From the NCBI GenBank assembly GCA_963848135.1, contig CAWKCK010000017.1, forward strand, positions 1,198,538 to 1,218,537: a DNA stretch of 20,000 bases, read 5' to 3'. The notes beneath the pieces are model-generated. The model worked only from the letters and a program-made list of their open reading frames with translations, did not search any database and had not been told where the DNA came from. Below are positions 3,614-20,000 of the stretch, piece after piece; the stretch's first letter is position 1, and each line of letters opens with the position of its first letter. Origin of the DNA: an uncultured delta proteobacterium (GTDB lineage: Bacteria; Desulfobacterota; Desulfobacteria; Desulfobacterales; SG8-13). The position numbers and the translations under genes are program-made.

Positions 3614-3749
3614 CTCTATAGGCAATTCAATGACCTCCCGCAAAATCGGATGAGTGGTATGTTAACCGCTCAAAGCGGCCATTTAAGACCATCAGCGCAC
3701 GCAATCCGCCGGCCATTGAATTTTTCTCAAATATCTCCCTTCAATTGAA

Positions 3750-3992
3750 TCAGACCATCGATTGATCTAATCGCATTTTGCGAAACCATTTTTCCATGTC
3801 CGCACCTTTGTTCCAACTTTCGATCAACCCTTCTAAAATATCAATTTTCCGTTGCTTCTCATTATTTATTTCTTTTTGAATTTGTTCATCTGTAAAGGAC
3901 GACTCATCAACGCTTCCGGAAACCAATCGTACCCGAAGTTTCACAGTGTGTTCAAATTCGTGATCGACAAAATCAAATGCAATCTCACTCAT
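3750..3992 (-). CDS. Small hypothetical protein (80 aa)
   Basis: GAGGG RBS about 6 nt upstream of ATG; protein-like charged composition; no family recognised. Confidence 0.55.
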   Translation of the reverse strand: MSEIAFDFVDHEFEHTVKLRVRLVSGSVDESSFTDEQIQKEINNEKQRKIDILEGLIESWNKGADMEKWFRKMRLDQSMV

Positions 3993-4523
3993 TTTTTTCC
4001 CTCATGGTTCAGAAGACTTATTTTCTGATATTCTGTGGAAAACGGTATGTCATTGGGTCGAGATTTTACCCCGCTCGGGTGGCATCTAAAATACCTGTGG
4101 CAACGCTTAACCAGTCCACGATTATACTGAACACCATGCCTAAAAGAACCACATCTGCCGATTACAATTTCACATCACAAGCGGATGTCACCGTATTGTG
4201 TAAATAGGATATCCCAAGTGTTTATTCAATAAAAATCCCGTGAATCTAAATCGAATCGACAAAACCCCAAATCTGATAATTGTTTCCGTATTAATGTGGC
4301 GTTTTCATATCTGTCATATTTGTTTGAGGAAACAGCTCATTTGGCATTTTGTTCTCATCTGGTGAAACGGTGATTACTAATAGAAAGATTTAGAATGTTA
4401 CTATTTTCAGGTAGATATGTTAAAATATATCAATGCCATAATGAAAGGCACCAAGCGTACGGCAATAAATAGGACCCAACTTCACACATTCTTTAAAAAT
4501 GCAACAGAAGTAAGGAATTGTAA

Positions 4524-5651
4524 GTGAAACCAGTCGGTAATAACCCGGAAGAGACAGTAAAATGGTATTTAGAGGCCGTGGCGGATACAGACAGGGAATG
4601 GATGGTTGCCGTCAAGCCACTTCCTTTTATCATTGGCCGCGATGAAGACTGCGAACTTAAGTTGACTGCCAAGCGGATTTCCAGGCGCCATTCCGAGATT
4701 CGTGAAAGTGGTGATCATCTTTGGATTCGCGATCTTGAAAGCACCAATGGCACTTTCGTGAACCACAAGAAGATCGAGCAGGCAGAATTGCTCGAATCGG
4801 GTGACATAATTTCCATTGGGGATTTTAATTTTTACATTAAAAACGTTGAATCTAATACAACATCCACGATGAGTAAAACTATCTCCATGGATATTTCTCA
4901 AGAGTTAAATTACTTGGACTCTATGAGGCCCAAGCTGCGAGCGTTGCTTTTTGAGCGAACCGTTATCCCTCATTTCCAACCAATCGTAAAGTTCTCAGAT
5001 ATGACAGTAACGGGGTACGAAATTCTCGGAAGGATTCCTAATGGAGACTTACCATCAAACCCTTCCGAGCTTCTAGAAATGGCTCAGTGTTTAGGGTATG
5101 CCTCTGAACTCAGCGCCCTTTTCCGTGATGTAGGCGTTGACATTGGGAGAAACCTACCGGGATCTCCTATTTTGTTTGTCAATACGACGCCAATGGAAGT
5201 TTACAAGATGAATGTTCTCTTAGAATCGCTAAGGAAGATTCATGATATGGTCCCCTCGAACAGAATCGTACTCGAAATTCATGAAAAGGCTATCACCGAC
5301 ATGAATGAGATGTCGAGACTCCGCAATGGGTTGGAAAAGCTGAACATAGGTCTGGCATTTGATGACTTCGGCGTTGGCCAAACGCGGCTGATGGAGCTCG
5401 CAAAGGCGCCTCCGGATTATCTTAAATTTGACGCATCCCTCATCCAGCATATCCACCTGGCACCGAGGCGGTTGCATCAAATGGTTTCTACCTTTGTCAA
5501 AGCAGCCCAAGACCTTGGAATTGCCACCATTGCAGAGGGAATTGAATGCTCTAATGAGGCTGAAAAATGCCAACAGCTTGGCTTTAATTTCGCGCAAGGC
5601 TTTTTCTATGGCAGGCCTTTGCCCATAACCGAAATCAATATCAGCTCATAA
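4524..5651 (+). CDS. FHA-EAL domain protein (putative c-di-GMP phosphodiesterase)
   Basis: FHA motifs IGR, SRRHS and DLESTNGTFVN; EAL motifs FQPIV, YEIL, FVN, VLEIHE, DDFG, YLKFD, AEGIE and QGFFYGRP; AAGGA RBS before GTG. Confidence 0.92.
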   Translation: MKPVGNNPEETVKWYLEAVADTDREWMVAVKPLPFIIGRDEDCELKLTAKRISRRHSEIRESGDHLWIRDLESTNGTFVNHKKIEQAELLESGDIISIGDFNFYIKNVESNTTSTMSKTISMDISQELNYLDSMRPKLRALLFERTVIPHFQPIVKFSDMTVTGYEILGRIPNGDLPSNPSELLEMAQCLGYASELSALFRDVGVDIGRNLPGSPILFVNTTPMEVYKMNVLLESLRKIHDMVPSNRIVLEIHEKAITDMNEMSRLRNGLEKLNIGLAFDDFGVGQTRLMELAKAPPDYLKFDASLIQHIHLAPRRLHQMVSTFVKAAQDLGIATIAEGIECSNEAEKCQQLGFNFAQGFFYGRPLPITEINISS

Positions 5652-5671
5652 TAGATAAATCCCTTTAATCA

Positions 5672-5734
5672 CCAGGTCATATCCCTCGAAAATCCTCAAA
5701 AACTAAAATTCGTATTGTGAAAATGAATCGCAAC
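5672..5734 (+). repeat. Intergenic repeat family A, copy 1
   Basis: CCAGGTCATATCCCTCGAAAATCCTCAAAAACTAAAATT; 30/39 identical to 12108-12146 (exact 16-mer TCGAAAATCCTCAAAA) and 31/39 to 15874-15912, by manual alignment. Confidence 0.75.
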
Positions 5735-6154
5735 TGCGCCTATTTAAGGAGAATGTATTCAGCCGTTCCGACTATTGACAGTACAATTTTAGTACATAAA
5801 CTACTTCTCATCGGGATATAAATGCCTTAAGAGGGTCATGTATTGACCGCTATACCATAAATTTCTCTTCAAACAATCATTCTTCCATCTTCCTTTACTC
5901 CCGGACACAGCGGTACTTTTTGGGCAGAAAGAGTAGCGTTCCATTCGCAGAAAAATCTGCCGGACAGTATACCACTTCTCTATTTGTCTCAAACTTCAGA
6001 TTTAACATAAGGGAGCAATCTTACTGCTGACCACAAAACGCGAACCTGCACCCCGACTCTATAATTGGTATTTTAGTCAAAGATGAACACCGATTTTTAT
6101 ACAATAACGTCATGCATAACGAATCACGCCATATTCGCCATAGGAGAATAAGTT

Positions 6155-6574
6155 ATGTCAACAGAAACTGAAGTCCGCAAAATTTCAGAACAATTCTACA
6201 AAGCATTGAACCGTATGGTCAATGGGGATGCCGGTCCACTGGCAGACATCTGGTCGCACAGCAAGACCGTTACGACCATGCACCCGAGAGGTGGGCGAGA
6301 AATCGGCTGGGATGCCGTCAGGGAATCGTTTGAGCAAGTCGCCCAATTGTCCTCAGACGGAAAGGTTGGACTGAAAGATCAACTCATCCAGGTCGCCGGG
6401 GATGTGGCCTACGAAATAGGCACCGAGCATGGGCAGTTTAGGCTTGCCGGACAGCAGGTCACCATCGATCATCGCGTCACGAACATCTATCGCCATGAAT
6501 CGGGGGTGTGGAAGATCGTCCATCACCATACTGATGTTTCTCCGAATATGTTGGATGTGATCAGTCACATGTAA
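6155..6574 (+). CDS. NTF2/SnoaL-like (DUF4440-type) protein
   Basis: HPRGG..GW, GDVAYE and RVTNIYR...WKIVHHH pattern; AGGAG RBS. Confidence 0.88.
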   Translation: MSTETEVRKISEQFYKALNRMVNGDAGPLADIWSHSKTVTTMHPRGGREIGWDAVRESFEQVAQLSSDGKVGLKDQLIQVAGDVAYEIGTEHGQFRLAGQQVTIDHRVTNIYRHESGVWKIVHHHTDVSPNMLDVISHM

Positions 6575-6609
6575 GCCGATACGTAAGCAACCTTATTATC
6601 GCTCGGTAT

Positions 6610-6899
6610 GCCAAGTTCACGGCTGGCAGTGCGTGTTCGGGCATGTACAGAGGTCTGCGGCTCTGGGAGGCTGCTGTGAAAGTGGCCGGCTCGCTAAGAC
6701 AAGAGAGGATGTCATCAATGCACTAAACCACGCAAAGATCGCTGAGGGGCCGGGGGATCCAGGGGAAATGGTGCCCGGTCAGCATCTCGTTCGAATGAAC
6801 ATGTACATTGCCCAGGCAAACAACGGTACTTTCAAGATTGTCGAGAGCCTGGGGGGCATTAATCCAAAGGAGTGCATGCAAGGTTTATATAGTAAGTAA
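6610..6899 (+). pseudogene. C-terminal fragment of an AmiC/UrtA-like (branched-chain/amide) ABC substrate-binding protein, frameshifted
   Basis: Frame from 6610 reads AKFTAGSACSGMYRGLRLWEAAVKVAGSLRQE; after 2 extra nt (AG at 6706-6707) it continues DVINALNHAKIAEGPGDPGEMVPGQHLVRMNMYIAQANNGTFKIVESLGGINPKEC. The N-terminal part is absent. Confidence 0.7.
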
Positions 6900-6980
6900 A
6901 CAAGATCCGTGTCGATGACCTCTTGGTGGCCTTGAGCGCGTCGAACAATGGCTGACGAGAATCGCGGGGCACAGCGTATA

Positions 6981-7019
6981 GCGGTCCGGTTGCAACAACC
7001 GGCGCTACAACCGGACCGC
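6981..7019. repeat. GC-rich inverted repeat (REP-like hairpin)
   Basis: GCGGTCCGGTTG (6981-6992) / CAACCGGACCGC (7008-7019): perfect 12-bp stem, no T-tract. Confidence 0.6.
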
Positions 7020-7048
7020 CAGGCGCACACTCTCGAAGGAATAGATCC

Positions 7049-7210
7049 ATGAGAAATGTAATTCGTCAATCAGTCGTATTATCAGCTTCCCCTGAAAAAC
7101 TATTTGAAATGTACATTAATCCCTCGACCCACCAGGCCATCACGGGTGAGCCGATCGATATTGGAGATAAAAGAGGTTCTGAATTAAAGATGGTCCTTTC
7201 CATGATTTGA
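7049..7210 (+). pseudogene. Truncated SRPBCC/AHSA1-like gene (N-terminal 53 codons)
   Basis: AAGGA RBS; MRNVIRQSVVLSASPEKLFEMYINPSTHQAITGEPIDIGDKRGSE resembles the N-terminus of AHSA1/SRPBCC proteins, then ends prematurely at TGA 7208-7210. Not in the ORF track. Confidence 0.65.
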
Positions 7211-7245
7211 TAGTAACAGACTAAATTGATAAAGAGGACGTCGCC

Positions 7246-8148
7246 ATGAAAAACGTATTGAGAACCCCGGATGAACGCTTCCTTGATCTTCCTGATTTCC
7301 CGTTCGATCCGGTTTACATCGACGATTTAAAGGACTTTGAAGGCTTACGGATGCACTACGTAGACGAAGGCCCTCAAATTGCAAATAACGTTTTTCTGTG
7401 TTTGCACGGCGAACCAACATGGGGCTTCCTTTACCGGAAAATGATCCCGCGTTTTACGGATGCGGGTAATCGCGTGGTCGCACCGGATTTTTTCGGTTTC
7501 GGTCGTTCAGACAAACCGGTGGACGAAACAGTGTATACGTTTGAATTTCACCGCAATTCGCTGATTGCCTTTATTGATCATTTAGACCTTAAAAACATCA
7601 CCCTCGTTTGCCAGGACTGGGGCGGTCTTCTGGGGCTCACATTGCCAATGATCATGCCGGAACGATTTTCCCGCCTGCTCATCATGAACACAACTCTCGG
7701 TACTGGTGATGTTCAACTTTCCCAAGGCTTTCTCGATTGGCGCTCCTGGGTTAGAAAGAATCCTGACCTTTCACCTGCCAGGCTGCTAAAGCTCACCTGT
7801 CCGCATTTGTCGGAGCGAGAGTGTGATGCTTATGACGCACCATTTCCGGATACCAACTACAAAGCCGGTGTTCGTTGTTTCCCTGAATTGGTGCCTGATC
7901 GACCCGCCGCACCCGGCGCGGAATTGTCACGCAGAGCACGCGAGTGGTTGCGCAACAAGTGGACCGGGCCGGTATTCATGGCCGTTGGGATGAAAGATCC
8001 AGTACTGGGCCCACCGGTGATGCAGGTACTTCGCAATGACATTCGGAACTGCCCCGAACCATATGAACTTCATGAGGCCGGGCATTTTGTTCAAGAATGG
8101 GGTGAAGAGGTTGCCACAGAAGCGCTGGAGGCTTTGAACAATAACTAA
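7246..8148 (+). CDS. Haloalkane dehalogenase, HLD-I (DhlA-like)
   Basis: LRTPDERF start, HGEPTW, GFGRSDKP, nucleophile QDWGG, second halide-binding W (FLDW), acid GMKDP and base AGHFVQE. Confidence 0.9.
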   Translation: MKNVLRTPDERFLDLPDFPFDPVYIDDLKDFEGLRMHYVDEGPQIANNVFLCLHGEPTWGFLYRKMIPRFTDAGNRVVAPDFFGFGRSDKPVDETVYTFEFHRNSLIAFIDHLDLKNITLVCQDWGGLLGLTLPMIMPERFSRLLIMNTTLGTGDVQLSQGFLDWRSWVRKNPDLSPARLLKLTCPHLSERECDAYDAPFPDTNYKAGVRCFPELVPDRPAAPGAELSRRAREWLRNKWTGPVFMAVGMKDPVLGPPVMQVLRNDIRNCPEPYELHEAGHFVQEWGEEVATEALEALNNN

Positions 8149-8255
8149 ACCCGCTTGGTAAAATCTCTGTAATAGAATGAAATCAAGAGCCTTCGAATGT
8201 GGTTCAAAAAATTCTGATTCGTATTTTATAAACACCCAAACATGAGGAGGAAATA

Positions 8256-8807
8256 ATGAAAAACTTGACGCTCAATTATGAAACCCTCATCAAGATCTCT
8301 CGATCCCTATCAAAATCAAAGGATCCGGAAAAAATCATCCAAATGACCGTGGAGAGTATCAAAACAGCTTTAGGCATCAAGGGATGCGCATTGTTTTTGG
8401 TTAATACGCAGTCAAAAGAATTGGAGGTTGCTGCTTCGACAGGACTAAGCTCTGAGTATTTGAACAAGGGCAAAGTGAGCGTTTTACGCTCGATTGCCGA
8501 ATCTCTTGAAGATGGCCCGGTAGCAGTTTATGATGTAAGCGATGACCCCAGGATACAATATCCCGAGGCCGCCAAAAAGGAGGGCATCGCCTCCATACTT
8601 TCTGTACCTATCTTTGTCGGTGATGCAGCCATCGGTGCAGTGCGGGTTTATGCATCCGAAAAATGGGAATTTACATTGGACGATGTCAACTTCGTTCAAG
8701 CTTTGGCCCAGATTGCAGGCATCCTAATAGAAATGAGTCGTTTATACAAAGGTCAGAATGAATACATTGACGTCTTGACAATTAGTTGTGAGTCTCCAGC
8801 TCTATAG
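8256..8807 (+). CDS. Standalone GAF domain protein
   Basis: GLS..YL.KG, DDPRIQYP, EGIASILSVPI, IGAVRVY and F...LA pattern; GAGGAGG RBS. Confidence 0.88.
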   Translation: MKNLTLNYETLIKISRSLSKSKDPEKIIQMTVESIKTALGIKGCALFLVNTQSKELEVAASTGLSSEYLNKGKVSVLRSIAESLEDGPVAVYDVSDDPRIQYPEAAKKEGIASILSVPIFVGDAAIGAVRVYASEKWEFTLDDVNFVQALAQIAGILIEMSRLYKGQNEYIDVLTISCESPAL

Positions 8808-8901
8808 ATTTATGCCAAATCCGTAACCGTAGGTACTTTTTATTTTACCGCATTTACCGACATCAAGGCATTGTGTTTGGGTTTTTTAACCTATCCTTCC
8901 T

Positions 8902-8987
8902 TAGGGACAATTACCCTATTATGGTAAAATATGCCCATTTAAACGTGGTTTTACCCTATTGAAAAAGCTCCAGAACATCGATATGTG
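8902..8987 (+). promoter_or_regulatory. Promoter module with three 20-bp-phased boxes abutting a TTGAAA -35 (copy 1)
   Basis: TACCC 8912, TGCCC 8932, TACCC 8952; TTGAAA 8959-8964; similar to 10739-10825. Confidence 0.5.
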
Positions 8988-9006
8988 ATACCTAATTTGA
9001 GCGATT

Positions 9007-9107
9007 GTCGGGGTTGCCGCAGCTACAAGGAAGATGTCGTTCCGCTATAGTCAGCTATGCGGAACGGCATATGACGCCTTAGAGGCGGCAAGATCGGCAA
9101 TCCCGAC
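9007..9107 (+). ncRNA. Putative structured RNA or leader (three-stem junction), unassigned
   Basis: P1 GTCGGGGTTGCCG/CGGCAATCCCGAC; P2 ATGTCGTTCCGC/GCGGAACGGCAT; P3 CGCCT-TAG-AGGCG. The non-Watson-Crick pairs are G-U on the + strand. Confidence 0.45.
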
Positions 9108-9109
9108 GG

Positions 9110-9186
9110 GTTTCAAATTTTAAAATCAAACTTTGTTAGAATTCCTTATAAATAAAGCAGTTCCCCCTCCATTTAAAATTTGAAAC
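9110..9186. repeat. 15-bp perfect inverted repeat enclosing 47 bp
   Basis: GTTTCAAATTTTAAA (9110-9124) / TTTAAAATTTGAAAC (9172-9186). Confidence 0.7.
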
Positions 9187-9313
9187 GCTCACTTTAGGTG
9201 AAAATAATATTAAAGTTTACCCGACATGTTCTTGACCTCCAGATCGATATAAATACTGATCTGTCTCCTTTGCTAAGACGCTACTAAATCTCCTTCCGTT
9301 TCCTCCTGCTGGA

Positions 9314-9820
9314 GAGAGCCGTCGAAGTCTTGAGAACCGAGCTCTGGAAGACAAGATCCGCGTCTTTCATGCCGCCAGTCACGGCATCTACGGATCACCC
9401 AAGATTCACCGGGATCTTATCGATGATGGCGTGCGATGCGGTAAAAACCGTGTCGCCCGAATCATGCGTGAAGCCGGTATCCGGTCTCGGACCAAAAAGA
9501 AATTCAAAGCGACGACCAACTCCCGGCACAACCTGCCGGTAGCGCCAAACCTGCTGAACCAGGATTTCACTGTGGATGCTCCTGACCGTACTTGGGTTAG
9601 CGATATTACCTACATCCATACCGAGAAAGGATGGCTATATCTGGCCGTGCTGCTGGATCTGTTCAACCGCGAGATCGTCGGTTGGGCAACCTCATCTCGG
9701 ATGACCCGCCAACTGGCGATTGATGCACTGCAGATGGCTCTTGGCCGTCGAACTCCTGCACAGGGCTTGATTCACCACTCGGATCGGGGCAGTCAATACG
9801 CTTCCGGCGATTATCAAACA
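9314..9820 (+). mobile_element. IS3-family transposase OrfB internal remnant (pseudogene)
   Basis: ESRRSLENRALEDKIR...YGSPKIHRDL...RVARIMRE, PVAPNLLNQDF, WVSDITY and HHSDRGSQY; homology stops at about DYQ, before the third DDE residue; no OrfA or TIRs seen. Confidence 0.9.
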
Positions 9821-9979
9821 GCAATTGGTTCGTTTTACGCAAAAACGAAAAATCAAAAATTGGCAATTTTTAACCCTTAACTTTCTTGGTTAAAAACATG
9901 AAACAAGGTTTTGGGAAGATGCCAAAATGCCTCTGGGGAATATTTTGTCCTTCATAGAGGCCTCTTTTCAGCTTTACCA

Positions 9980-10023
9980 GGAATCTATTCGGTATTTAAC
10001 CAGATCGCGGTATAGATTGGAGG
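9980..10023 (+). repeat. Intergenic repeat family B, short degenerate copy
   Basis: GGAATCTATTCGGTATTTAACCAGATCG resembles 19752 GGAATATTTCCTTATCTTAGCCAGATCG; ends ATAGATTGGAGG, like 14524 ATAGTTGGAGG. Confidence 0.35.
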
Positions 10024-10032
10024 GCTGATAAA

Positions 10033-10518
10033 ATGAAAACGATATTGGTTTCTCTGGCCTTAGTCGGCTTCGGTATTTTCTTCACCACAAAATCATATCC
10101 AACATGTTTAAACAGATATAATGATAAAAATTGTGAAAGTAATCTAAATTACTACCTATCCCAATACTTTCACATTGCCGCCGACATTATTATATACCCC
10201 AAAGTCCTCAATCTCAAAAGCAAACGCAAAACAATTATATCAGGGATCAGGTTGCATGACGGGTATGATCCTCATGACATTGACGGGGATTCCATCGAAT
10301 TATCCGTTCAGTCCTGCGTGGTCTGCAAAATAATCTATCCGGATTGTGGGTATCCTTCGCACGGGCGCTACATCTCCGTTTTCCCACGACCGGGCCTGAT
10401 TGATGATATCGAGACCGTCGCGCTTGAATTTCCTACCAAGTTAGAGCTAAAAATAACCGGTGAGCTAAAGGACGGGACCCCCTTTGAGGGGTTGGATATT
10501 ATTTGGGTTGTCAAATGA
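10033..10518 (+). CDS. Hypothetical exported protein with a conserved uncharacterised beta-type domain
   Basis: N-terminal hydrophobic signal; P..LNLKSK...GYD..DID...ITGELKDGTPFEG.D.I.V pattern that I recall from C-termini of large surface proteins; GGAGG RBS. Confidence 0.7.
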   Translation: MKTILVSLALVGFGIFFTTKSYPTCLNRYNDKNCESNLNYYLSQYFHIAADIIIYPKVLNLKSKRKTIISGIRLHDGYDPHDIDGDSIELSVQSCVVCKIIYPDCGYPSHGRYISVFPRPGLIDDIETVALEFPTKLELKITGELKDGTPFEGLDIIWVVK

Positions 10519-10738
10519 AAATAGTGCAAAGAAAAATAGACCAAGGTCGATGCAACGATGCAAGTTTCTTTTCCCTAATTCATGACTTATGCCAAGGCGT
10601 TGTTGATCGCCTGTTTTTCGCTTTCGTTTAACGCACGAAACTTTTCAGTCTATCGGATCCACCGCAGTGTAACCCATTGTTCTTGAATTGAATAATTTTA
10701 TATATGTCTTCGGTTGGACAGATCAAATTCATTCTCGG

Positions 10739-10825
10739 TAGGAGATACGCCCATCATAAAGGAAATATTCCCACTAAAATGTATGTTTCCCTCTATTGAA
10801 AAACCTTAGAGAGCAAATATATACA
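10739..10825 (+). promoter_or_regulatory. Promoter module copy 2, upstream of the PilZ gene
   Basis: CGCCC 10748, TTCCC 10768, TTCCC 10787; TTGAAA 10796-10801; TATATA/TATACA at 10818-10825. Confidence 0.5.
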
Positions 10826-10997
10826 TGTTTATTGGAAGTTACCTCAAATCGGGGCCATCAGTAAATCCATGCCGGTGATTTTTGACAATCTTTTCAGAAG
10901 TGTTCCTTCTGAATTAAGCGTCGTGAATCGTCGGTAGTTAGACTATCATAGTGGCTCTCGTATCGATGACGGCGGACAAGTGTAGCGAGGTCAAATA

Positions 10998-11501
10998 ATG
11001 GAGTCAGAGACAAGACGGAAATATCCACGCCTCCCTGGTCAAATTTCAATTTTGTATGCAGGATATGACTCTGGGGGTTATGATAAAGCCATAATGCTTA
11101 ATAGCTGTCCGGATGGAATGTATTTTAAATCGGACTCGCCTGTTCAGCCACAATGTGATCTTTACATCAAAATCCAGGATCACCGGCGAGGGAGTTACGT
11201 GCCAGATCAGTATAAGGCTTTTCGAGCCAAGGTGAAATGGTGCCACAAGGTAAGGGGCGATAAGGTTCCGTGCTATGGCATTGGCGTTCAATACACAGCC
11301 AAGAGTCATCTCTCATACGGTATAAATTGTACCAACTCCGACTGTCTTTGCGATTTATGTGAGAAGCGATCCCCTACCAAATCGATCCATCGAACTGAAA
11401 CCGGACTGCAGTTGTGCCCCGATTGCTTAGAACATATGGAGACACTTTCCCGCTCCATGGTAGAATCTGTAGAGCGTTTTTTATTAAGAAACGTGGTTTA
11501 A
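10998..11501 (+). CDS. PilZ domain protein with C-terminal C4 zinc finger
   Basis: RKYPR (RxxxR), NSCPDG (D/NxSxxG-like), AKVKWC and GIGVQY; then CDLC-x18-CPDC; GAGGT RBS. Confidence 0.82.
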   Translation: MESETRRKYPRLPGQISILYAGYDSGGYDKAIMLNSCPDGMYFKSDSPVQPQCDLYIKIQDHRRGSYVPDQYKAFRAKVKWCHKVRGDKVPCYGIGVQYTAKSHLSYGINCTNSDCLCDLCEKRSPTKSIHRTETGLQLCPDCLEHMETLSRSMVESVERFLLRNVV

Positions 11502-11550
11502 TTGACACAGTTCATCGCAACAAATTTAGTGAATAAGGAGAGAATGACCT

Positions 11551-11853
11551 ATGGAAATGACATCAATCGCAAAAGATTTTATTGGCCTACAAAAACAAGC
11601 TTTCAATAATTTTTTCGACGCCGTGGCACTTATCCAAGACCAGACTGAAATAACGAACAGATTTTTTACCAAACAAATGCGTATCAGTGATGAAGCGCAA
11701 AGTTATGTCGATCAATGCCGAATGATTTTCAAGGATGGGCGTGACGAATCCCGAAGACTTGTCATTGAAAGCATCACTAACATGGAGAACTTTTGCGACG
11801 CTTTAGGATCGAATAGACGAATCGAAAAGAATATTGGCGCTTCAAAACCTTAA
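11551..11853 (+). CDS. Phasin-like helical protein (deltaproteobacterial type)
   Basis: IAKDFIGLQKQAFNNFFDAVALIQDQTE...FKDGRDE resembles the Desulfobacterales phasin-like family as I recall it; AAGGAG RBS. Confidence 0.65.
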   Translation: MEMTSIAKDFIGLQKQAFNNFFDAVALIQDQTEITNRFFTKQMRISDEAQSYVDQCRMIFKDGRDESRRLVIESITNMENFCDALGSNRRIEKNIGASKP

Positions 11854-12107
11854 CTGCCGTAAACTCCTTGAAGTGTTTGATACCCCGATAAAAGGTCTAT
11901 AAAAAACAAACGATCAGAGGTGATTGTCAAAAGCGATATCCATTAAAGTCGCCTTTTTACAGTACTGCATGCCTTAGTGTGGTCGCCAGAATGTAAGCCT
12001 TACCGTGCGAGATACTTACCAATTTATCTAACATAAATTACCCAAATCCGAAAAGTAAGAACAACGATTAACCGCAATTTTGATCGTACCTCAAACTTTT
12101 GGGTTAG

Positions 12108-12171
12108 CCTAACCATAACCTTCGAAAATCCTCAAAATCTGAACTTTCATGAGCTGGAAAGAAATCGTAAC
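12108..12171 (+). repeat. Intergenic repeat family A, copy 2
   Basis: CCTAACCATAACCTTCGAAAATCCTCAAAATCTGAACTT...TGGAAAGAAATCGTAAC aligns with 5672-5734. Confidence 0.75.
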
Positions 12172-12514
12172 ATTTCATCACACCGGTAACTTAACAATAC
12201 CCTTTGCAATAATATAAAGTTGGCGATATTAGAAGTATGTGATGTATCCACGATTTCCGATTATCATAGATGTCATATAGGCCATAGGCAGGTTTTTAAA
12301 GAAGACACGGGTTTGCTCATTCAGTAGGTTGCAGCGACCACATTAAGGTTTTAAATACAGCATTGTATTTTCTGCATAATTGATTCTATGATAAGCGCAA
12401 TGCTAAAATATAAATTATCAAAACATAAGTGATGTTCTCATGCATTGATACCGAAACCCTGTTTCTCAATCGAGAGGCGGATTTTTTGGTTCGTGTCCGA
12501 GGGGGGTGGATGTT

Positions 12515-13165
12515 ATGAAAAATTTAACTTTGTTCATAAAATTAATTTCATTTCAGCTTGTATCAGCATGCATAGTGTCAAACCTTGTGTTACCGGCTCC
12601 AGTTTTTTCGGCGGAGACTTCCCAGGCCTTTAGGCATGAAAACGGTCTCCAGACCTATGTCCCCCCCGAGTGGTTTCTAAGAGGATACTTCATTGCCAGT
12701 GAAAAAAAACCAAAGTACGTTTTTGGTACGGTTCAGGATTTTGCAGATACGCTTGGTGACACAACCACGTGGTTGATCGAGGACTTGGAGTTAGAACGGC
12801 TGAAAGCGGCCTCTGCTGATGGTAAGAAAATCGAATATTCGCTCTTTCTTGAAGCGGTTTTAACTGATAGCACAGAATACTGGGTTTTCGTAGTGCTGCC
12901 CTATGAAAGTGCGCAGGCGTGGTACGATGCGAGGCGAGCCTATCACGGAAGAAAAGCCGATGAATATTACGGAGAAGCCCGAAGTGAGATTGAACGTGCA
13001 TTGAATCAAGGATTTAACATTAACGCTGAGCTTCGCTTTTGGATAGAGAACGGAGAGACCAACCTGCAGGTCCCCGAGGACGTAATCGTAAGCAAATACA
13101 ACATTAAACCGGTTTTCGATCTCGGCACGGGCCGCCGGATAGCGCCGGCAGCTAAAATTGAGTAA
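12515..13165 (+). CDS. Hypothetical exported protein
   Basis: ATG 12515 after GAGGGGGGTGGA; signal-peptide-like N-terminus ending VFS-AE; 26 bp upstream of the AKR gene. The ORF track gives an alternative GTG start at 12506. Confidence 0.75.
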   Translation: MKNLTLFIKLISFQLVSACIVSNLVLPAPVFSAETSQAFRHENGLQTYVPPEWFLRGYFIASEKKPKYVFGTVQDFADTLGDTTTWLIEDLELERLKAASADGKKIEYSLFLEAVLTDSTEYWVFVVLPYESAQAWYDARRAYHGRKADEYYGEARSEIERALNQGFNINAELRFWIENGETNLQVPEDVIVSKYNIKPVFDLGTGRRIAPAAKIE

Positions 13166-13191
13166 CTCGGAATTCAAGGAGGGTATAAATC

Positions 13192-14424
13192 ATGCCATTC
13201 AATGAGAATAAATCTGATAAATCTAATCGCCGGGATTTCCTAAAAAAAGCAGCTAATATAGGATTGGGGATTGCGGCGAGCGGTGCCGTTCTCCGGTCGC
13301 CCCGTCCGGCATCAGCTCAGATCACCCTTCCCAATACGCCAGTACCCCGCAGACCTTTCGGCCGGTCGGGCACAAAGGTCTCTACACTTTCGCTTGGCGG
13401 GATGTTTGACATATTGAATAATCGACTAATGCTTGCCAAAGCGCTTGAGTGGGGAATCGACTATTGGGACACTGCTGAAGTATACGGTGGGGGTCGCAGT
13501 GAAGAGGGCATCGGTCGCTGGTTCGCTAGGTATCCTGATAGCCGCAAACAAGTGTTTCTGGTGACCAAGCTTTCACTGAGAAAAGGTAGCGATTTTACGC
13601 CCCGGCTTGAAGCATGTTTGAAACGGCTCCATACCGATTATGTTGATCTTCTCTTTGTGCATGGCATCAGAGGCATTGGTGATATGCCTCCCCACCTGGA
13701 ATCTTGGTCCCAAGCAATGAAAAAGGCTGGCAAGTTGAGGTTGTTCGGTTTTAGCACACATGCCAATATGGAAGACTGCCTTGAGGGGGCCGCTCGGCTA
13801 CCGTGGATAGACGGCATCATGTTTACCTATAACTACCGCCTGATGCATGAGAATCGAATGAAAGCGGCAGTTGAGGCCTGCTACCAAGCCGGTATCGGTC
13901 TCACTGCAATGAAAACCCAAGGCGGCGGTCCAGTCATGAGTGATTCCGATGCTGAGTTAGAAATGGCAGGCCGCTTTATGCAGAAAGGATTTACACACCA
14001 TCAAGCAAAACTAATGGCTATTTGGGAAGATAAACGTATCGCGAGCATTTGCTCTCAGATGCCCAATCTCACCATTTTGGCAACCAACGCGGTTGCAGCA
14101 GTCGATCAAACCCACCTTTCACAGTTCGACCGTAACTTGCTGGTTAAATACGATCGGGAAACTTGCAGTGACTACTGCGCTGGATGCGGTCGTCTTTGTT
14201 CAGAAGCGCTTGATGATAGGGTGCCCATAAACGATGTCATGCGCTGCCTGATGTACGCTCATTCTTACCAGGATTTAATGCTGGCACGTTCCACATTCGA
14301 AATGCTACCGTTTCAAACAAAGGCGCTCTTGACTCAGCTGGACTTTAGTGCAGCGGAACGGTCGTGCCCCCGAAACTTGCCGATTGGACGGATGATGCGA
14401 GAGGCGAGTAAACTTTTGACTTGA
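13192..14424 (+). CDS. Tat-signal aldo/keto reductase with C-terminal Fe-S cysteine motif
   Basis: NRRDFLK twin-arginine motif; AKR tetrad in WDTAEVY, LVTK and FVHG; CAGCGRLC...C...CP; AAGGAGG RBS. Confidence 0.9.
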   Translation: MPFNENKSDKSNRRDFLKKAANIGLGIAASGAVLRSPRPASAQITLPNTPVPRRPFGRSGTKVSTLSLGGMFDILNNRLMLAKALEWGIDYWDTAEVYGGGRSEEGIGRWFARYPDSRKQVFLVTKLSLRKGSDFTPRLEACLKRLHTDYVDLLFVHGIRGIGDMPPHLESWSQAMKKAGKLRLFGFSTHANMEDCLEGAARLPWIDGIMFTYNYRLMHENRMKAAVEACYQAGIGLTAMKTQGGGPVMSDSDAELEMAGRFMQKGFTHHQAKLMAIWEDKRIASICSQMPNLTILATNAVAAVDQTHLSQFDRNLLVKYDRETCSDYCAGCGRLCSEALDDRVPINDVMRCLMYAHSYQDLMLARSTFEMLPFQTKALLTQLDFSAAERSCPRNLPIGRMMREASKLLT

Positions 14425-14461
14425 CCGGGTGAACGGCAGCCTGTTTCTATTTTCATGAACC

Positions 14462-14531
14462 TATCATCTGGTCGATTCGCTTGATATAGCCGGATCCTAT
14501 CGTCATCGATGGTACGATTTCCAATAGTTGG
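14462..14531 (+). repeat. Intergenic repeat family B, copy 1
   Basis: 14462-14492 is 28/31 identical to 18320-18350; 14487-14531 is 36/45 identical to 19769-19813 (manual, ungapped). Confidence 0.8.
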
Positions 14532-14659
14532 AGGATCGGCAAGAAGGCCCGAACTCTATGAAGTCCTTTTTATATGGGATATTTTTTAAAATAGAATTAC
14601 ATTAAGTATAACAGGTTCTGTATAATACCTGTTCGAGAACCAGACGATTGAGGACAAAA

Positions 14660-15775
14660 ATGGGTATTGAACAAAGAGTCAACCCTCGGAGCACGATATC
14701 CGAGAGGCAGAGCCAGGCGCACATGCTGGGGCACGGCTTCTATAACAAACACTCGCAAGAACAGGGCATGGTGAATCGCTATTGCTTGCCTCTCTTGGCT
14801 GATGCTGTGAACACAATTGACGTCGAGCAAACCGCTGACCATTTTCGCATAGCTGATTATGGCTCAGCTCAAGGGCGCAATTCGCTTTTGCCGATCAAAA
14901 CCGCGATAGCAAAAGTTAAGTTGCGTTGGAATCCCCTCCCTCCTATTACAGTCATCCACACTGATCTGCCGACGAATGATTGGACGACTTTGTTCCAAAC
15001 GGTGCTCACTTCGACCGATAGTTACCTTGTCGGCGAGACAAACGTGTTCGCTTTTGCCAGCGGTATTTCCGTCTACAGTGAAATCTTTCCACCGAACTAC
15101 ATTGCACTCGGTTATTCCGCCATCGTCGAACACTGGCTAAGCCACAAACCAACCAACATAACTGATCATATATGGACGGCTCGCACCATAGGGAAGGAGC
15201 ACGATGCTTGGGCGGCGCGGGCCAAAGACGATTGGTACAACTTTTTACGCTTTCGCGCGGTAGAATTGATTCCGTCGGGACGCTTAGTGATTGTGGGGAG
15301 TGGGGCTGATCCTGAAGGCAACAGCGGTGCGGAGGCGCTCCTTGATCTGGTGAACGATATCCTTCAATCAATGGTAACAAAGGGCGAATTGCTCGCCGAT
15401 GAGTATGCACAAATGGCAATCCCGACCTACTATCGGGTCGAGAAAGAGTGGCGCGAACCGTTCAAGGATTCGGAGTTTATCCAAGGGAATCCGCTCAGAC
15501 TGCTGCGTTATGAAGAATTCGCCTTGGACGATGTCTATCTCGCGCAATATGAGCAGACCGGCGATGCCGTCGCTTTCGCCAAGGAATATGCCGCCTTTTT
15601 CCTGGCCGCTTTTGAACCGTCGCTGTTCGTCAGTTTGCGTGAAGACCGAGATGATCTGAACAAACAGCGCATCAGCGAGATCTTTTCGAAACAATTACAG
15701 ACTGCGCTGGCCCAAGACCCATCGAAGTATTCCGCGCGGTGGTGGCTGGCGGTAATGGTGATTGCAAAGAGATAA
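14660..15775 (+). CDS. SAM-dependent carboxyl methyltransferase (SABATH / Methyltransf_7 family)
   Basis: M.G.G.YN.HS, IADYGSAQGRNS, DLPTNDWTTLF, HWLS..P, FLRFRAVELIPSGRLV and PTYYR match SABATH motifs; GAGGA RBS favours ATG 14660. Confidence 0.88.
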   Translation: MGIEQRVNPRSTISERQSQAHMLGHGFYNKHSQEQGMVNRYCLPLLADAVNTIDVEQTADHFRIADYGSAQGRNSLLPIKTAIAKVKLRWNPLPPITVIHTDLPTNDWTTLFQTVLTSTDSYLVGETNVFAFASGISVYSEIFPPNYIALGYSAIVEHWLSHKPTNITDHIWTARTIGKEHDAWAARAKDDWYNFLRFRAVELIPSGRLVIVGSGADPEGNSGAEALLDLVNDILQSMVTKGELLADEYAQMAIPTYYRVEKEWREPFKDSEFIQGNPLRLLRYEEFALDDVYLAQYEQTGDAVAFAKEYAAFFLAAFEPSLFVSLREDRDDLNKQRISEIFSKQLQTALAQDPSKYSARWWLAVMVIAKR

Positions 15776-15870
15776 TTGGCAGCATGATGACTCTTGGAAA
15801 TCGGCTTGTTGCCACCCGAAACAGAAGGCCTCTAACAATGCAAATTCAGGAATCATTGAAAAGACTGTGA

Positions 15871-15912
15871 TAGCCAGATCATATCCTTATAAAATTCTCA
15901 AAATCTGAAAAT
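15871..15912 (+). repeat. Intergenic repeat family A, copy 3 (begins with the family B core)
   Basis: TAGCCAGATCATATCCTTATAAAATTCTCAAAATCTGAAAAT; first 15 nt are 14/15 identical to 19769-19783. Confidence 0.75.
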
Positions 15913-15936
15913 TGCGATTATGACAAGCCGGCAATA

Positions 15937-15985
15937 GCATTGACCCACCCACAAGTTCCATATAGTTTAAATATATCGGAAAGTG
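15937..15985 (+). promoter_or_regulatory. Sigma70-like promoter upstream of flavin reductase, duplicated at 19835
   Basis: TTGACC 15940-15945 ... TATAGT/TAGTTT 15961-15968; similar to 19835-19888. Confidence 0.5.
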
Positions 15986-16467
15986 AGTAATCTTCGATCT
16001 TATCCAAGTATGGTCAATATTTCATGATTTAACAAATCCTCAAAAGAATACGGAATGGAGATTCTTCAATGGGGAAGGTTCAAGCAGATTTCAAAACACT
16101 ACGTTATCCGTTACCGATAACTCTTGTCGGTGCTATCGTAAAAGGGAAACCAAACTTTTTAACCATTGGCTACTTTGCCATCCTCAGCCATTTGCCACCT
16201 ATTGTCTCAGTAACATTATACAAAAACCATTATACTGTAAAAGGAATCAAAGAAAACGGTGCATTCAGCGTAAATATTCCATCTGCTGACATGGTGAAAA
16301 TAACGGACTACTGCGGAATAGCTTCTGGGCGGAAAGTGGACAAATCGAACCTTTTTAAATCCTTTTATGGTCTGCTCAACACCGTACCGATGATCGAGGA
16401 ATGTCCATTGAATATTGAATGTAAGTTATTTCAATCTATAGATACCGGCAACAACTTAATATTTTTA

Positions 16468-17987
16468 CTCAACTTTCGGTGTTCGTAGCCAAGTTGTTCT
16501 TTGACAAGCCGACACACTGCAGCGCGGTGTCCATGATAGCATCAAAGAATGCCGATGCTGTTTTTTCACAGAAGTTGCCAAGATTTCTCAATTGATTGCT
16601 CGCCAGAGTCAAAATCCGGTAAAGCGCCTCAATGAACGAGATATCACTGACTTCATCACAGCAGAGGTAAAAAAGCTCTCCAAAAGTTCGATGATCTGTC
16701 TCGGTTCGGCACTGATAGGCCAAAAACATATACCGCATGAACACGATGGACGTATGAGCAATCAGGGCGTCAAAGTCACGGCACTGGATTTCTTTGGCCA
16801 GTTTTAAATGTTGTTTGGCCATTTTGAAGAACACTTCGATATCCCAACGCTTACCGTAGATGCGGACAACATCTGCATCGGGCAGACTGATATCGGTTGT
16901 TAGCAGCGCCAGCCAGTCCTTTTTGCGTTTATCCCGGACAAAGACCAGTTTAACCTGCCGACCATCTTTGAGTTGCACCAGGGTGCTGGCCAATACCTTG
17001 GCCCGTCCCCGTCGTTTCTTCAATTTGCCATAGATATTCATCAGATCCATGGCATGCCCGTTGTAGCGGTAGAAAATCTTGGAGGACTTTTTCACCATGC
17101 CGACGACATCAATATGTTCTGCCAAGGCCGTAACGGTAGCGGGCATCGTGAACCAGCTGTCCATCAGAAGATAGTTTGCACAGATACCAGCAGACCGTAT
17201 GCGTTTGACCATGTTTTCAAGATGCGCGGTGGCCTTAACCGTCGCCTCTTTTCTGCGTTGATGCGCACAGCAGCGTTTATCCAAAGGTTTTTGACTGCCG
17301 CACAAACGCTTTTTCGAATCGGCCGAGGAGAGCAGGGAGAAGTCCAACGGCAGGCAACTGGCACCGTCGGACCAGCATACGGTGAGCATCCGAAAGCCTC
17401 TCAAATAACGGCCCGTACTATGATCCCAGACGCGGCACAGCAGTTCAACCATTTTGGATCTGGAGCGATCGTAAGGACTGTCATCAATGATGAGAACCGT
17501 TTCTCTATCTTTGCTTGTTAGCCTGTCGAAAAAAGCGAACAGACGACGTCCGAGGCAAAGAAGCAATCGACGCCAGTTATAGGTTGTTCCTTTAAGCAAC
17601 TGATAGGCCGCATCTTTGCCGAAGGGAAGATCCTGGTTGATAACAATGCCGCGGAAGAAGTTCTGACCGACAAATGGCAGTGTGAATATGGCTTGTGTCA
17701 AAGAGCGAACACTATGACCGTGGCGTTTTCGTACCCCACAGCGGTGCAGAAGGGTGCCCAGTCTGAATCGGTCGAAAAAGTCATCAATTTTGCTTTGAAC
17801 GTGAATGTTTCCTTGAGATTCGGAGGCAATGTTGGTATGGTCCATTTGAGCCCTTTCTTTTTGATATTATTATGAATTATGCCAAATCCATTATAAATCA
17901 AAAGACGGGGCTCTTCAATTTATTTCTTCATGATTTCAAATAATTAGACCATAATTCTGCCTCGCAAATCTAATCCAGAAAGTTGAG
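16468..17987 (-). mobile_element. Complete insertion sequence, 1520 bp (IS4-like DDE; possibly ISNCY ISDol1 group)
   Basis: TIRs CTCAACTTTC (16468-16477) / GAAAGTTGAG (17978-17987); 7-bp TSD ATTTTTA at 16461-16467 and 17988-17994. Confidence 0.95.
16469..17845 (-). CDS. DDE transposase (458 aa), intact
   Basis: IIDDS, LMDSWF and YGKRWDIEVFFK (YREK motif); stop codon lies inside the TIR. Confidence 0.95.
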   Translation of the reverse strand: MDHTNIASESQGNIHVQSKIDDFFDRFRLGTLLHRCGVRKRHGHSVRSLTQAIFTLPFVGQNFFRGIVINQDLPFGKDAAYQLLKGTTYNWRRLLLCLGRRLFAFFDRLTSKDRETVLIIDDSPYDRSRSKMVELLCRVWDHSTGRYLRGFRMLTVCWSDGASCLPLDFSLLSSADSKKRLCGSQKPLDKRCCAHQRRKEATVKATAHLENMVKRIRSAGICANYLLMDSWFTMPATVTALAEHIDVVGMVKKSSKIFYRYNGHAMDLMNIYGKLKKRRGRAKVLASTLVQLKDGRQVKLVFVRDKRKKDWLALLTTDISLPDADVVRIYGKRWDIEVFFKMAKQHLKLAKEIQCRDFDALIAHTSIVFMRYMFLAYQCRTETDHRTFGELFYLCCDEVSDISFIEALYRILTLASNQLRNLGNFCEKTASAFFDAIMDTALQCVGLSKNNLATNTES

Positions 17988-18319
17988 ATTTTTAGGAGAA
18001 GTAGCATCTGTTTACGCTAATGAAGAGGTCTTGAGCGAAGGTGTGCCAGATATTCGAACGATCGACCCAATGGTGCTGTTTGGGTCTGTCTACCACTCTT
18101 GGAAATTCGGGCAGGAAATCGCTGGGGCATACCGGATTGGGAAGAAATTCAAGGACAGCGTTTCTTAGAAGAAACAGATGTCTCCAACTAAACGTATATG
18201 AGTAGAAGTTACAAATATCTAAGATGATATCTGTAAAAATTTTTCCATTAAAAAGTACTGATATTTTAGACCTATCAACCGTATAGGTAAACTAAAACCT
18301 GCTGCTATGACCTTTGAGG

Positions 18320-18394
18320 TATCATATGGTCAATTCGCTTGAGATAGCCGCACTGTATTGTATCAACATAATTAGTGCGCCATATGATAATTGG
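18320..18394 (+). repeat. Intergenic repeat family B, copy 2
   Basis: TATCATATGGTCAATTCGCTTGAGATAGCCG vs 14462 TATCATCTGGTCGATTCGCTTGATATAGCCG; ends GATAATTGG. Confidence 0.78.
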
Positions 18395-18559
18395 ACCTTT
18401 AGTAAGAAATCTATCGATTCGGGTTTAATCCTTCGCATCAGAGCCTGTCGGCCAATGATAGAGCCCATAAAAATGGATATTTTTAATTTCGGTTAATATT
18501 TATTGTGCTAAGAGGTGAATGTGGTGATTAGGTCACTCTATTAATTAAGGAGGGGCAGC

Positions 18560-19684
18560 ATGTATAATAGTTTATTTTCTGAAATTAACATACAGGGCTT
18601 GATTTTGAAAAACCGTCTTACAATGGCACCACTCTACCTGGGCTATGCTGGTGAAGGCGGTACGGTCAGCGAAATGTTGCTGGAGCATTATCGAATCATG
18701 GCTCAAAGCGGCGTCGCCATGGTCGTAGTCGAAAATTCGACTGTAGACCATCCCCTCGGAAGCGGCTCCAACAGAACCCTGAGGGCTGACATCGACGACA
18801 ATCTGGACGGTCTGAAGAAGTTGGCCGCAACCATCAAAAAAGACGGTGCGCTATCCTGCTTACAGATCAACCACGCTGGACGTTTTGCCCATTTGGCACA
18901 AGAACCGGTGGCGCCATCGGCGGTAAAAACCTTTGGCCGGATACCCAGAGTCCTCGAAAAGGTAGAGATCGACCGTATTATGGACAAATATGCCAACGCC
19001 GCGGTTAGGGCCAAAACTGCAGGGTTTGATATGGTGGAATTGCACGGTGGCACCGGCTATCTGCTGGCCCAATTTCTCTCTCCACGAACCAACCACCGCA
19101 CCGATCAATATGGCGGAAACCTGGAAAATCGCCAGCGATTCGCCCTGGAGGTACTGAAGCGGGTCCAAGATGCGGTGTATGGCTTCCCAGTGGGGTATCG
19201 GTTTTTGGCCGATGAATGGCTTCCGGACGGCTTGCAATTGGATGAGGCAAAACAATTCGCCAAAAGTTTAGCCCAAGCTGGCATTGCGTATATTTCAGTC
19301 ATGGGCGGCACGTATGAATCCTTTTCCTTGCCTGAAATTGTAGAACAATCCAAACAGCAAGGTTACATGCTCGATTTGGCCGCAGAGATCCGTGCAGGAA
19401 TCGATGTGCCCGTGATCGCCGCCGGCCGCTTAGCTACCGGTGGATTTGCGGACCAGGCCATCTCCGAAGGCAAGACTGACCTGATCGGGTTGGCACGTGT
19501 ACTCTGGGCCGACCCGCAATGGCCGAAAAAGGTTCGCGATGGCCAGGAGGCAGACATTGTCCATTGCGATCCTGACTGCGGTGACGCCTGCATGCAGATG
19601 GTGATGAAAGGTCGGCCGGCGTTTTGTGTAGCGTGGTCTCCAGAAAAAATGAAGGGATGGAAGGCAAAATTTATTGAAAAGTAA
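18560..19684 (+). CDS. NADH:flavin oxidoreductase / Old Yellow Enzyme family protein
   Basis: LKNRLTMAP, QINHAGR, AGFDMVELHGGTGYLLAQFLSP.TN.RTD.YGG and DLIGLAR...DP.WP; C-terminal Cys cluster; AAGGAGG RBS. Confidence 0.93.
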   Translation: MYNSLFSEINIQGLILKNRLTMAPLYLGYAGEGGTVSEMLLEHYRIMAQSGVAMVVVENSTVDHPLGSGSNRTLRADIDDNLDGLKKLAATIKKDGALSCLQINHAGRFAHLAQEPVAPSAVKTFGRIPRVLEKVEIDRIMDKYANAAVRAKTAGFDMVELHGGTGYLLAQFLSPRTNHRTDQYGGNLENRQRFALEVLKRVQDAVYGFPVGYRFLADEWLPDGLQLDEAKQFAKSLAQAGIAYISVMGGTYESFSLPEIVEQSKQQGYMLDLAAEIRAGIDVPVIAAGRLATGGFADQAISEGKTDLIGLARVLWADPQWPKKVRDGQEADIVHCDPDCGDACMQMVMKGRPAFCVAWSPEKMKGWKAKFIEK

Positions 19685-19744
19685 ATTCAAAATCCCATCA
19701 AATGCACAATAGCGGGGTTGCGTACATGTAATTTTTTCCAAATC

Positions 19745-19813
19745 TATCTCTGGAATATTTCCTTATCTTAGCCAGATCGTATCGTCACCTTTGATGCGAT
19801 TTCCGATATTTGG
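19745..19813 (+). repeat. Intergenic repeat family B, copy 3
   Basis: TAGCCAGATCGTATCGTCACCTTTGATGCGATTTCCGATATTTGG, 36/45 identical to 14487-14531; upstream TATC-TCTGG also shared. Confidence 0.8.
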
Positions 19814-19834
19814 TCTAGTGGCAAGTAAACACAA

Positions 19835-19888
19835 GTATTGACCCTCCTCACTATTTCCATATACTCTTTCAATCAATCTGTAAGTGGC
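19835..19888 (+). promoter_or_regulatory. Sigma70-like promoter, probably for a gene beyond the window
   Basis: TTGACC 19838-19843, 16 bp, TATACT 19860-19865. Confidence 0.55.
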
Positions 19889-20000
19889 TGGTTTCCATAA
19901 AATATATCATTGACGAAAAACACTAATTCATGCATCGACACGATTATCCCCCTGCATATCAATCTTGGCTCACTATTTGTTTAGGAATTGCGTTCTATTT

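Follow-up and report, generated by a model that had tools for sequence, protein, structure and literature searches.

The window analysed here is a stretch of 20,000 nucleotides from contig CAWKCK010000017.1 (assembly GCA_963848135.1, positions 1,198,538 to 1,218,537, forward strand) of an uncultured delta proteobacterium of the Desulfobacterales. It holds a row of accessory genes punctuated by copies of a ~100-bp repeat, referred to below as the site. Judged from sequence comparison, the site marks the edges of gene units that are placed between different neighbours in related genomes. A small recombinase gene that lies nested in some of the repeat copies is the probable driver of the cassette array, which is real and probably a new kind of cassette platform. 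The source genome (6.0 Mb) is labelled G000, and the compared genomes are labelled G001 onward.

The accessory genes of the window belong to the left part of a 62.7-kb island, because G005 and G014 join the flanking genes across ~145 bp: in both, the short-chain dehydrogenase gene is followed after ~145 bp by the gene found here at window-relative position 66,378. G006 carries a different 6.7-kb insert at the same locus. The island contains a run of 24 profile matches, all on the + strand. The features of the window are:

2840..3613, + strand: short-chain dehydrogenase gene (Pfam adh_short), the last backbone gene before the island
3616..20000, no strand: left part of the 62.7-kb accessory island, which continues past the window; GC 0.46 versus ~0.50; left edge without a recognisable site
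4524..5651, + strand: cargo, FHA-EAL protein (Pfam)
5669..5711, + strand: decayed half site, the central core and part of an A-type right arm (leave-out profile, E 0.0036)
6155..11853, + strand: decayed stretch of SnoaL, alpha/beta hydrolase, GAF, unknown, PilZ-like and small helical genes with debris (Pfam); no site detected
12062..12161, + strand: site, A subtype, worn, with third centre TGGAAAG at 12155-12161 (E 3e-9); cargo shared with G005 from 12163
12162..14443, + strand: cassette cargo, a secreted-type protein of unknown family (12506-13165) and an aldo/keto reductase (13192-14424), from comparison with relatives
14444..14543, + strand: site, B subtype, with centres 14444-14450, 14490-14496 and 14537-14543 (E 4e-25)
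14648..15775, + strand: cargo, S-adenosylmethionine (SAM)-dependent carboxyl methyltransferase (PF03492)
15828..15927, + strand: site, A subtype, first centre worn, third centre TGACAAG at 15921-15927 (E 9e-17)
15928..18301, + strand: cargo, flavin reductase-like gene (from 16069), broken at 16467-17987 by an insertion sequence (IS) (Pfam)
18302..18406, + strand: site, B subtype, with a 5-bp insertion; first centre CTGCTAT at 18302-18308, third TAGTAAG at 18400-18406 (E 8e-20)
18407..19725, + strand: cassette cargo, NADH:flavin oxidoreductase (18560-19684; PF00724)
19726..19825, + strand: site, B subtype, third centre TGGCAAG at 19819-19825 (E 5e-17)

Profiles built in a leave-out design, with no window copy included, recover five full-length sites with cores at 12105, 14487, 15871, 18345 and 19769 (best E 3e-9 to 4e-25) and the one decayed half site. 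All are on the + strand, and the best match in reversed control DNA reaches only E 9.7. The preliminary description had placed repeats at 5672, 12108, 14462, 15871, 18320 and 19745; all six are real, but the first is only a half site. Its weak traces at about 4255, 9980, 12251 and 18222 are at chance level, as at least two such scores are expected in a window of this size, and the leave-out profiles do not recover them; the trace at 12251 falls within cargo common to two relatives. The statement that repeats stand at many gene boundaries applies to the right half only, because no site is recognisable between 5711 and 12062. The same-strand layout was correctly described: 13 of the 14 open reading frames (ORFs) of at least 100 aa between 4602 and 19684 are on the + strand, the exception being the IS transposase at 16469-17845. 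The cargo genes are functionally unrelated, as claimed, and belong to separate Pfam families. Short gaps from stop codon to site are likewise present (20, 53 and 42 bp for the sites at 14444, 15828 and 19726). Rfam and tRNA scans of the window gave no genuine match.

Three 7-mers are prominent in the site. The first, CTGCTAT, lies at -43; the third, TGGCAAG, lies at +50 and is exact in 139 of 225 sites; between them, at +3, is a variable centre. The 7-bp centres are 46 and 47 bp apart. The spacing is fixed, with the third centre at +50 in 64/71 and 117/126 members of two site sets. When arm profiles were compared, with the flanks not used for choosing the outer registers, zero shift was best in 9/9 comparisons. 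The six 11-bp arm profiles are mutually similar and beat 20,000 of 20,000 column shuffles, although 2 of the 15 single pairs are not significant. The site is thus likely, on sequence grounds, to be three Xer-type core sites in a row, each with an 11-bp arm, a 7-bp centre and an 11-bp arm, and with different overlaps. First centres are intact in 119 and third centres in 192 of 254 sites. Families A and B of the preliminary description are indeed related, co-oriented repeats; they are arm subtypes of one ~100-bp site with fixed spacing rather than two families, and 20 of 69 full sites have mixed A/B arms.

An attC-type hairpin is ruled out by the folding results of both strands. RNAalifold predicts 0 pairs for the top strand, mean DNA folding z-scores are -0.46 (top) and -0.22 (bottom), and 1 of 31 sites per strand falls below -2. 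There is no covariation about the site centre, and the attC-type ends RYYYAAC ... GTTRRRY occur in 0 of 225 sites, in agreement with the earlier statement that attC is absent. A TTGAC motif lies ~12 bases past the third centre in many sites; at 19835-19870 of the window it is followed by TATACT. This motif may be a cassette promoter or part of an outer arm.

The first genome profiles were seeded with the copies of the preliminary description. They detect about 100 related sites in G000, and the reversed genome yields 0 at E<=1; the count at E<0.05 is ~96. A neighbour within 5 kb is present for 81 of the 96 sites (random mean 14, maximum 27). Adjoining sites are on the same strand in 73 of 77 cases in G000 and in 104 of 105 cases in relatives (177/182 together); the relative count covers 60 regions picked around matches in six relatives. 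Sites in the genome and its relatives are therefore clustered and co-oriented, and the random, scattered orientation named beforehand as contrary evidence is not seen. Between the sites, 79 of 102 ORFs are on the site strand, and ~14 of the other 23 are transposase- or recombinase-like by sequence.

The control was the window's own miniature inverted-repeat transposable element (MITE), 210 bp long (8990-9199) with terminal inverted repeats. It occupies 105 genome loci, scattered and in both directions; 27/105 are clustered and 28/51 neighbours share a strand. The preliminary description also allowed that the repeats may be relics of a non-autonomous element. In keeping with that suggestion, the site has the same two ends as a 1.06-kb recombinase unit described below; against an origin as MITE or IS ends, the sites are neither scattered nor randomly oriented, unlike this MITE.

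Of the 16 genus genomes, 14 have sites, the largest number in one genome being 64; an order sample of 120 other genomes has them in 9. The G000 model finds 0-2 weak sites in each of five distant genomes. With a lineage model, three cultured Desulfosarcina genomes give 8, 15 and 5 sites, and 3, 5 and 1 of these had been used to train it; the clusters there are short. A plain listing shows arrays or single sites 2-8 kb from tRNA or tmRNA genes at C17:48308-48478, C17:1249421, C18:437921, C5:659692 and C2:293896. G006 encodes a true integron integrase (C2:26668-27618) and also holds 64 of the repeat sites.

Edges of cargo were mapped among 254 sites. Pairs with one common flank formed 30 groups, and five mobile-element groups were excluded. 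In 11 of 12 groups the start of the cargo lies at the third centre, two of these on weaker identity, and in 2 at the first centre (one group shows both). Cargo ends, in 13 groups, fall at the third centre in 5, the central one in 4 and the first in 3 (one group shows two), with 2 unresolved. In close pairs the edge lies within 1 base of the third centre in 7/7, and only three site pairs share both flanks. Gain and loss edges in relatives thus map to the site, as anticipated, but mostly to its outer centres. The shared TAGCCAGATC core, proposed as the crossover point, is a minor route (4/25 cargo groups), and a crossover between A and B at this core is not the main event.

Two units of the window illustrate this movement. 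The unit 12163-14443 is 89% identical in G005, where it has other neighbours; it begins there at the third centre of one site and stops at the first centre of the following site. The G007 copy has no site at either edge. The unit 18411-19825 occurs in G003 with its downstream site (95%), from third centre to third centre; G003 is near-identical through 19825 and divergent beyond. In G007 the same unit is found with its upstream site (93%), and homology begins at the first centre, 18302. Cargo and its own downstream site travelled jointly in five groups.

The candidate enzyme is a 278-aa tyrosine recombinase. Its opposite-strand gene has a left half site on one side and a special right half site on the other, an arrangement present at least six times in G000. 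The nested unit is a single gene within 1.06 kb, and both of its ends are as in the repeat. Recombinase genes within sites are found in G000, G001, G003, G006 and G010. The nearest is 6.7 kb past the window end, and a pair of other tyrosine recombinase genes lies 1.4 kb past it. These neighbours, together with the same-strand arrays and the cargo edges at the site, support the earlier suggestion of a gene-capture system with its recombinase beyond the window.

The nested protein has core-binding and catalytic domains only. Residues R141, K165, H224, R227, H251 and Y260 are at least 90% conserved among 45 homologues. Its best solved relatives are archaeal XerA proteins; the structure model, with predicted local distance difference test (pLDDT) values <50 after residue 235, served for fold class alone. 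The closest named relatives are mostly Desulfobacterales-type records. In Desulfobacterota-type genomes, the right half site and TGGCAAG keep an unchanged position ahead of the gene, for proteins of 65-78% identity. Of 57 gene copies examined, 40 have one base too many in a stretch of 8-9 A close to codon 20, and 7 are in frame; this pattern of sequence suggests programmed slippage. Sites and enzyme show a positive but loose co-occurrence: in the 120-genome order sample, the recombinase occurs in 5/9 site-positive versus 18/111 site-negative genomes, counts in which kin are not independent. It was not found in plasmid and phage collections.

An integron integrase, a class marked by a specific insertion in its catalytic domain, is absent from G000 as judged by TIGR02249 (no match at E<=1e-30). 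The nested protein scores 52.9 against this profile, where the cut-off is 265, and covers positions 20-177 of 315. A serine recombinase was rejected as the driver, as only one broken resolvase gene is present.

Several other mobile elements insert at the 7-mers. Two families of 2.1-kb elements encode only two tyrosine recombinases and occur in 1 of 16 genus genomes. They lie in G000 at C17:1219882-1222010, C5:47142, C18:551465, C1:237213 and C18:610388; the one nearest the window accounts for the genes 1.4 kb past its end. All five have 12/12 bp terminal inverted repeats and TGGCAAG on both sides (control pairs 0/1,774). TGGCAAG is taken as a tyrosine-recombinase overlap because these elements carry perfect ends and a duplicated 7-mer. 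In Desulfosarcina-type loci, TGGCAAG occupies the CTGCTAT position, 36 nt ahead of the dyad. The three-core register is supported because the element ends and these loci independently agree.

Inside the third centre lies an IS110-family element of 344 aa, at the identical place in 6/6 copies examined (G000 C1:217539, C1:247949, C18:536804, C18:591016, C5:43003 and C5:657290). In three sites (G000:C18:452874, G000:C18:591016 and L069:1886), a common upstream sequence stops at the first centre; it resembles the 3' end of a group II intron. A further tyrosine recombinase, with a transposase-like and probably IS91-like gene behind it, starts 1 base past a centre in two relatives, the third centre in G007 and the first in G006 (L060:567-1500; L075:18840-19100 with L076:19-783; L095:11545-12400). 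As far as the sources at hand describe them, group IIC introns target attC and IS1202-family insertion sequences target pdif, the plasmid-borne dif sites.

The favoured reading, held with a probability of about 0.6, is that the ~100-bp repeat is a double-stranded recombination site with three cores, recombined by the nested small Xer-like recombinase, which would be the enzyme that moves the cassettes. The enzyme would join equal centres of two directly repeated sites, third with third most often. Excision would give a circle of cargo plus one site. The circle would reinsert at the equal centre of another site with its direction kept, and such same-direction reinsertion would build co-oriented rows in which A and B arms become mixed. 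Enzyme output would stay low through the conserved extra base of the A-run, and arrays would outlast the loss of the enzyme.

A number of observations weigh against this proposal. The outer arms are weakly conserved and the 7-mers strongly, a pattern that also fits protein-binding boxes. Complementarity between cassette starts and ends is at chance level (42 pairs, p 0.07-0.26). The base after TGGCAAG differs in 3/7 close pairs, and the cut may therefore be one base further. All six G000 recombinase copies with a start codon carry the extra base. By the model used, 18 of 23 recombinase-positive genomes are without a site, and no intact recombinase was found in G007 (58 sites) or G016 (8 sites). 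No circles or back-joints were present in the contigs of five sediment runs, where contigs only were searched. Among public runs, 20 contain small parts of the sequence (share <=0.35), and the few contig joints at sites could stem from other copies. The island's left 8 kb has one half site only; other routes therefore also add genes.

The main rival overlaps with the favoured reading and differs in which centres pair. The mobile unit would be a minimal tyrosine-recombinase element extending from first to third centre, 1.06 kb with the gene and 100 bp without; new copies would insert at the end of earlier ones, and cargo would be a passenger between two copies. The ends that the recombinase unit shares with the repeat fit this idea, as do the many half sites (intact first centre 119/254, third 192/254) and the end-to-end joints, in which TGGCAAG is followed 36 nt later by another central dyad. 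Such joints occur in ~12 of 17 Desulfosarcina-type rows and once in G000 (C17 1240734). What makes the idea unlikely is that the copies are clustered and co-oriented, unlike the true MITE, and that cargo and downstream site moved jointly in five groups. Searched with a strict pattern, G000 and 140 loci gave 0 matches to an empty target carrying both outer arms, and flanks are seldom common between sites. Joints of a right arm plus a first centre number 18, against 41 in reversed DNA.

Recombination by the host XerCD, as with dif modules, would make the nested gene a passenger. Five of the six arms match the pdif XerD arm at 4.4-5.5 of 11 bases (p 0.004-0.054), and G007 and G016 still have arrays although the intact recombinases found in them are mainly of the XerC/D type. 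The centres are 7 bp rather than 6, the direction of sites never alternates, and a separate single 11-6-11 dif-like site exists at C2:210323, so this explanation is very improbable. The latter site is likely the host dif and is unlike the array sites.

Equally little can be said for a regulatory or structural repeat, such as a promoter or operator, with exchange by homologous recombination between similar copies. TTGAC often follows the site, as seen by eye, and arm mosaics are common (20/69 mixed); against this, copies are only ~50-60% alike, edges fall within 1 base of the third centre in 7/7 close pairs, and three kinds of mobile element insert at the 7-mers, which leaves the proposal highly improbable. 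Least credible as drivers are the two-recombinase elements that duplicate TGGCAAG: they are the sole elements with a clean 7-bp duplication and perfect ends, one of them 1.4 kb past the window, but they occur in 1/16 genus genomes, whereas sites occur in 14/16.

Integrons are the textbook case of cassette capture and rely on folded single-strand sites. The arrays described here, once more read as rows recombined by the nested enzyme, resemble integrons and attC clusters that have no integron integrase (CALINs), so far as the parts of the accounts drawn on here describe them, in several ways (PMC8618304, PMC9024848, PMC3053210). Both have co-oriented rows of mostly single accessory genes with a downstream site, a crossover mostly at the downstream end of the site, and an opposite-strand tyrosine recombinase adjoining a special site. 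In both, arrays outlive the enzyme and sites are hit by an IS110-family element. Unlike integrons, G000 has no IntI, and the enzyme is a plain core-binding and catalytic protein of 278 aa. The site is of fixed length and forms no hairpin, RYYYAAC/GTTRRRY ends are missing, three centres are usable, and there are many small arrays with several enzyme copies per chromosome.

The dif modules of Acinetobacter plasmids are also similar in that Xer-type sites of arm, centre and arm bound gene modules and matching centres are needed, as outlined in the part of the source used (PMC13141974). The arms here weakly resemble the XerD arm (<=5.5 of 11). According to the same portion of that source, pdif are single 28-bp sites with 6-bp spacers (11-6-11), in alternating direction and on plasmids (PMC13141974). 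The 100-bp unit of the present system combines three cores with 7-bp centres, runs in one direction, is found on chromosomal contigs and has a recombinase of its own.

Tn554, RIT, SE and GInt share with this system tyrosine recombinases, a 6-7 bp spacer, target choice and the lack of transfer genes, within the sections of the sources at hand (PMC10214605, PMC3414803, PMC8138268). The two-recombinase elements of G000 resemble this class and agree in part with its multi-gene core. In the same sections, members of the class have two to four core genes and 1-2 copies, and array-building of ~100 sites is not described (PMC10214605, PMC3414803, PMC8138268); the nested unit has one gene.

At title and abstract level, no description of such a cassette system was found in the literature; supplements could list such a family. 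It is tentatively suggested, at somewhat short of even odds, that this is a third natural cassette platform beside integrons and dif modules. It would combine a slippage-controlled Xer-like recombinase with a double-stranded three-core site, be Desulfobacterota-wide and have its own site-seeking parasites. With the same reserve, the different 7-bp centres may serve as three addresses, and a circle could be cut out or reinserted at any of them with its direction unchanged. If true, cassette arrays have more than one origin, searches based on IntI and attC would likely overlook such arrays, and a large share of the turnover of accessory genes in these sediment bacteria would be explained by the system (one genome has ~96 sites). 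Related sites and enzyme are present in complete genomes of cultured Desulfosarcina strains, where the system is open to testing. A small recombinase with three separable 7-bp addresses could become a tool.

The remaining observations concern the window's other contents. For the SAM-dependent carboxyl methyltransferase at 14648-15775, no match was listed among 15 genus relatives; PF03492 methyltransferases are familiar mainly from plants. PilZ homologues lie within 250 bp of a site in four relative loci. The insertion sequence at 16467-17987 is of the DDE type, has inverted ends and interrupts the flavin reductase-like gene; two identical copies are on C18, and the target gene is unbroken in G008. 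A transposase gene remnant with rve and HTH_21 domains lies at 9313-9880, with near-identical copies elsewhere in the genome. Debris at 6633-6899, 3741-4014 and 7031-7189 includes part of a periplasmic binding protein gene; the rest is short stretches with matches at other loci in relatives.

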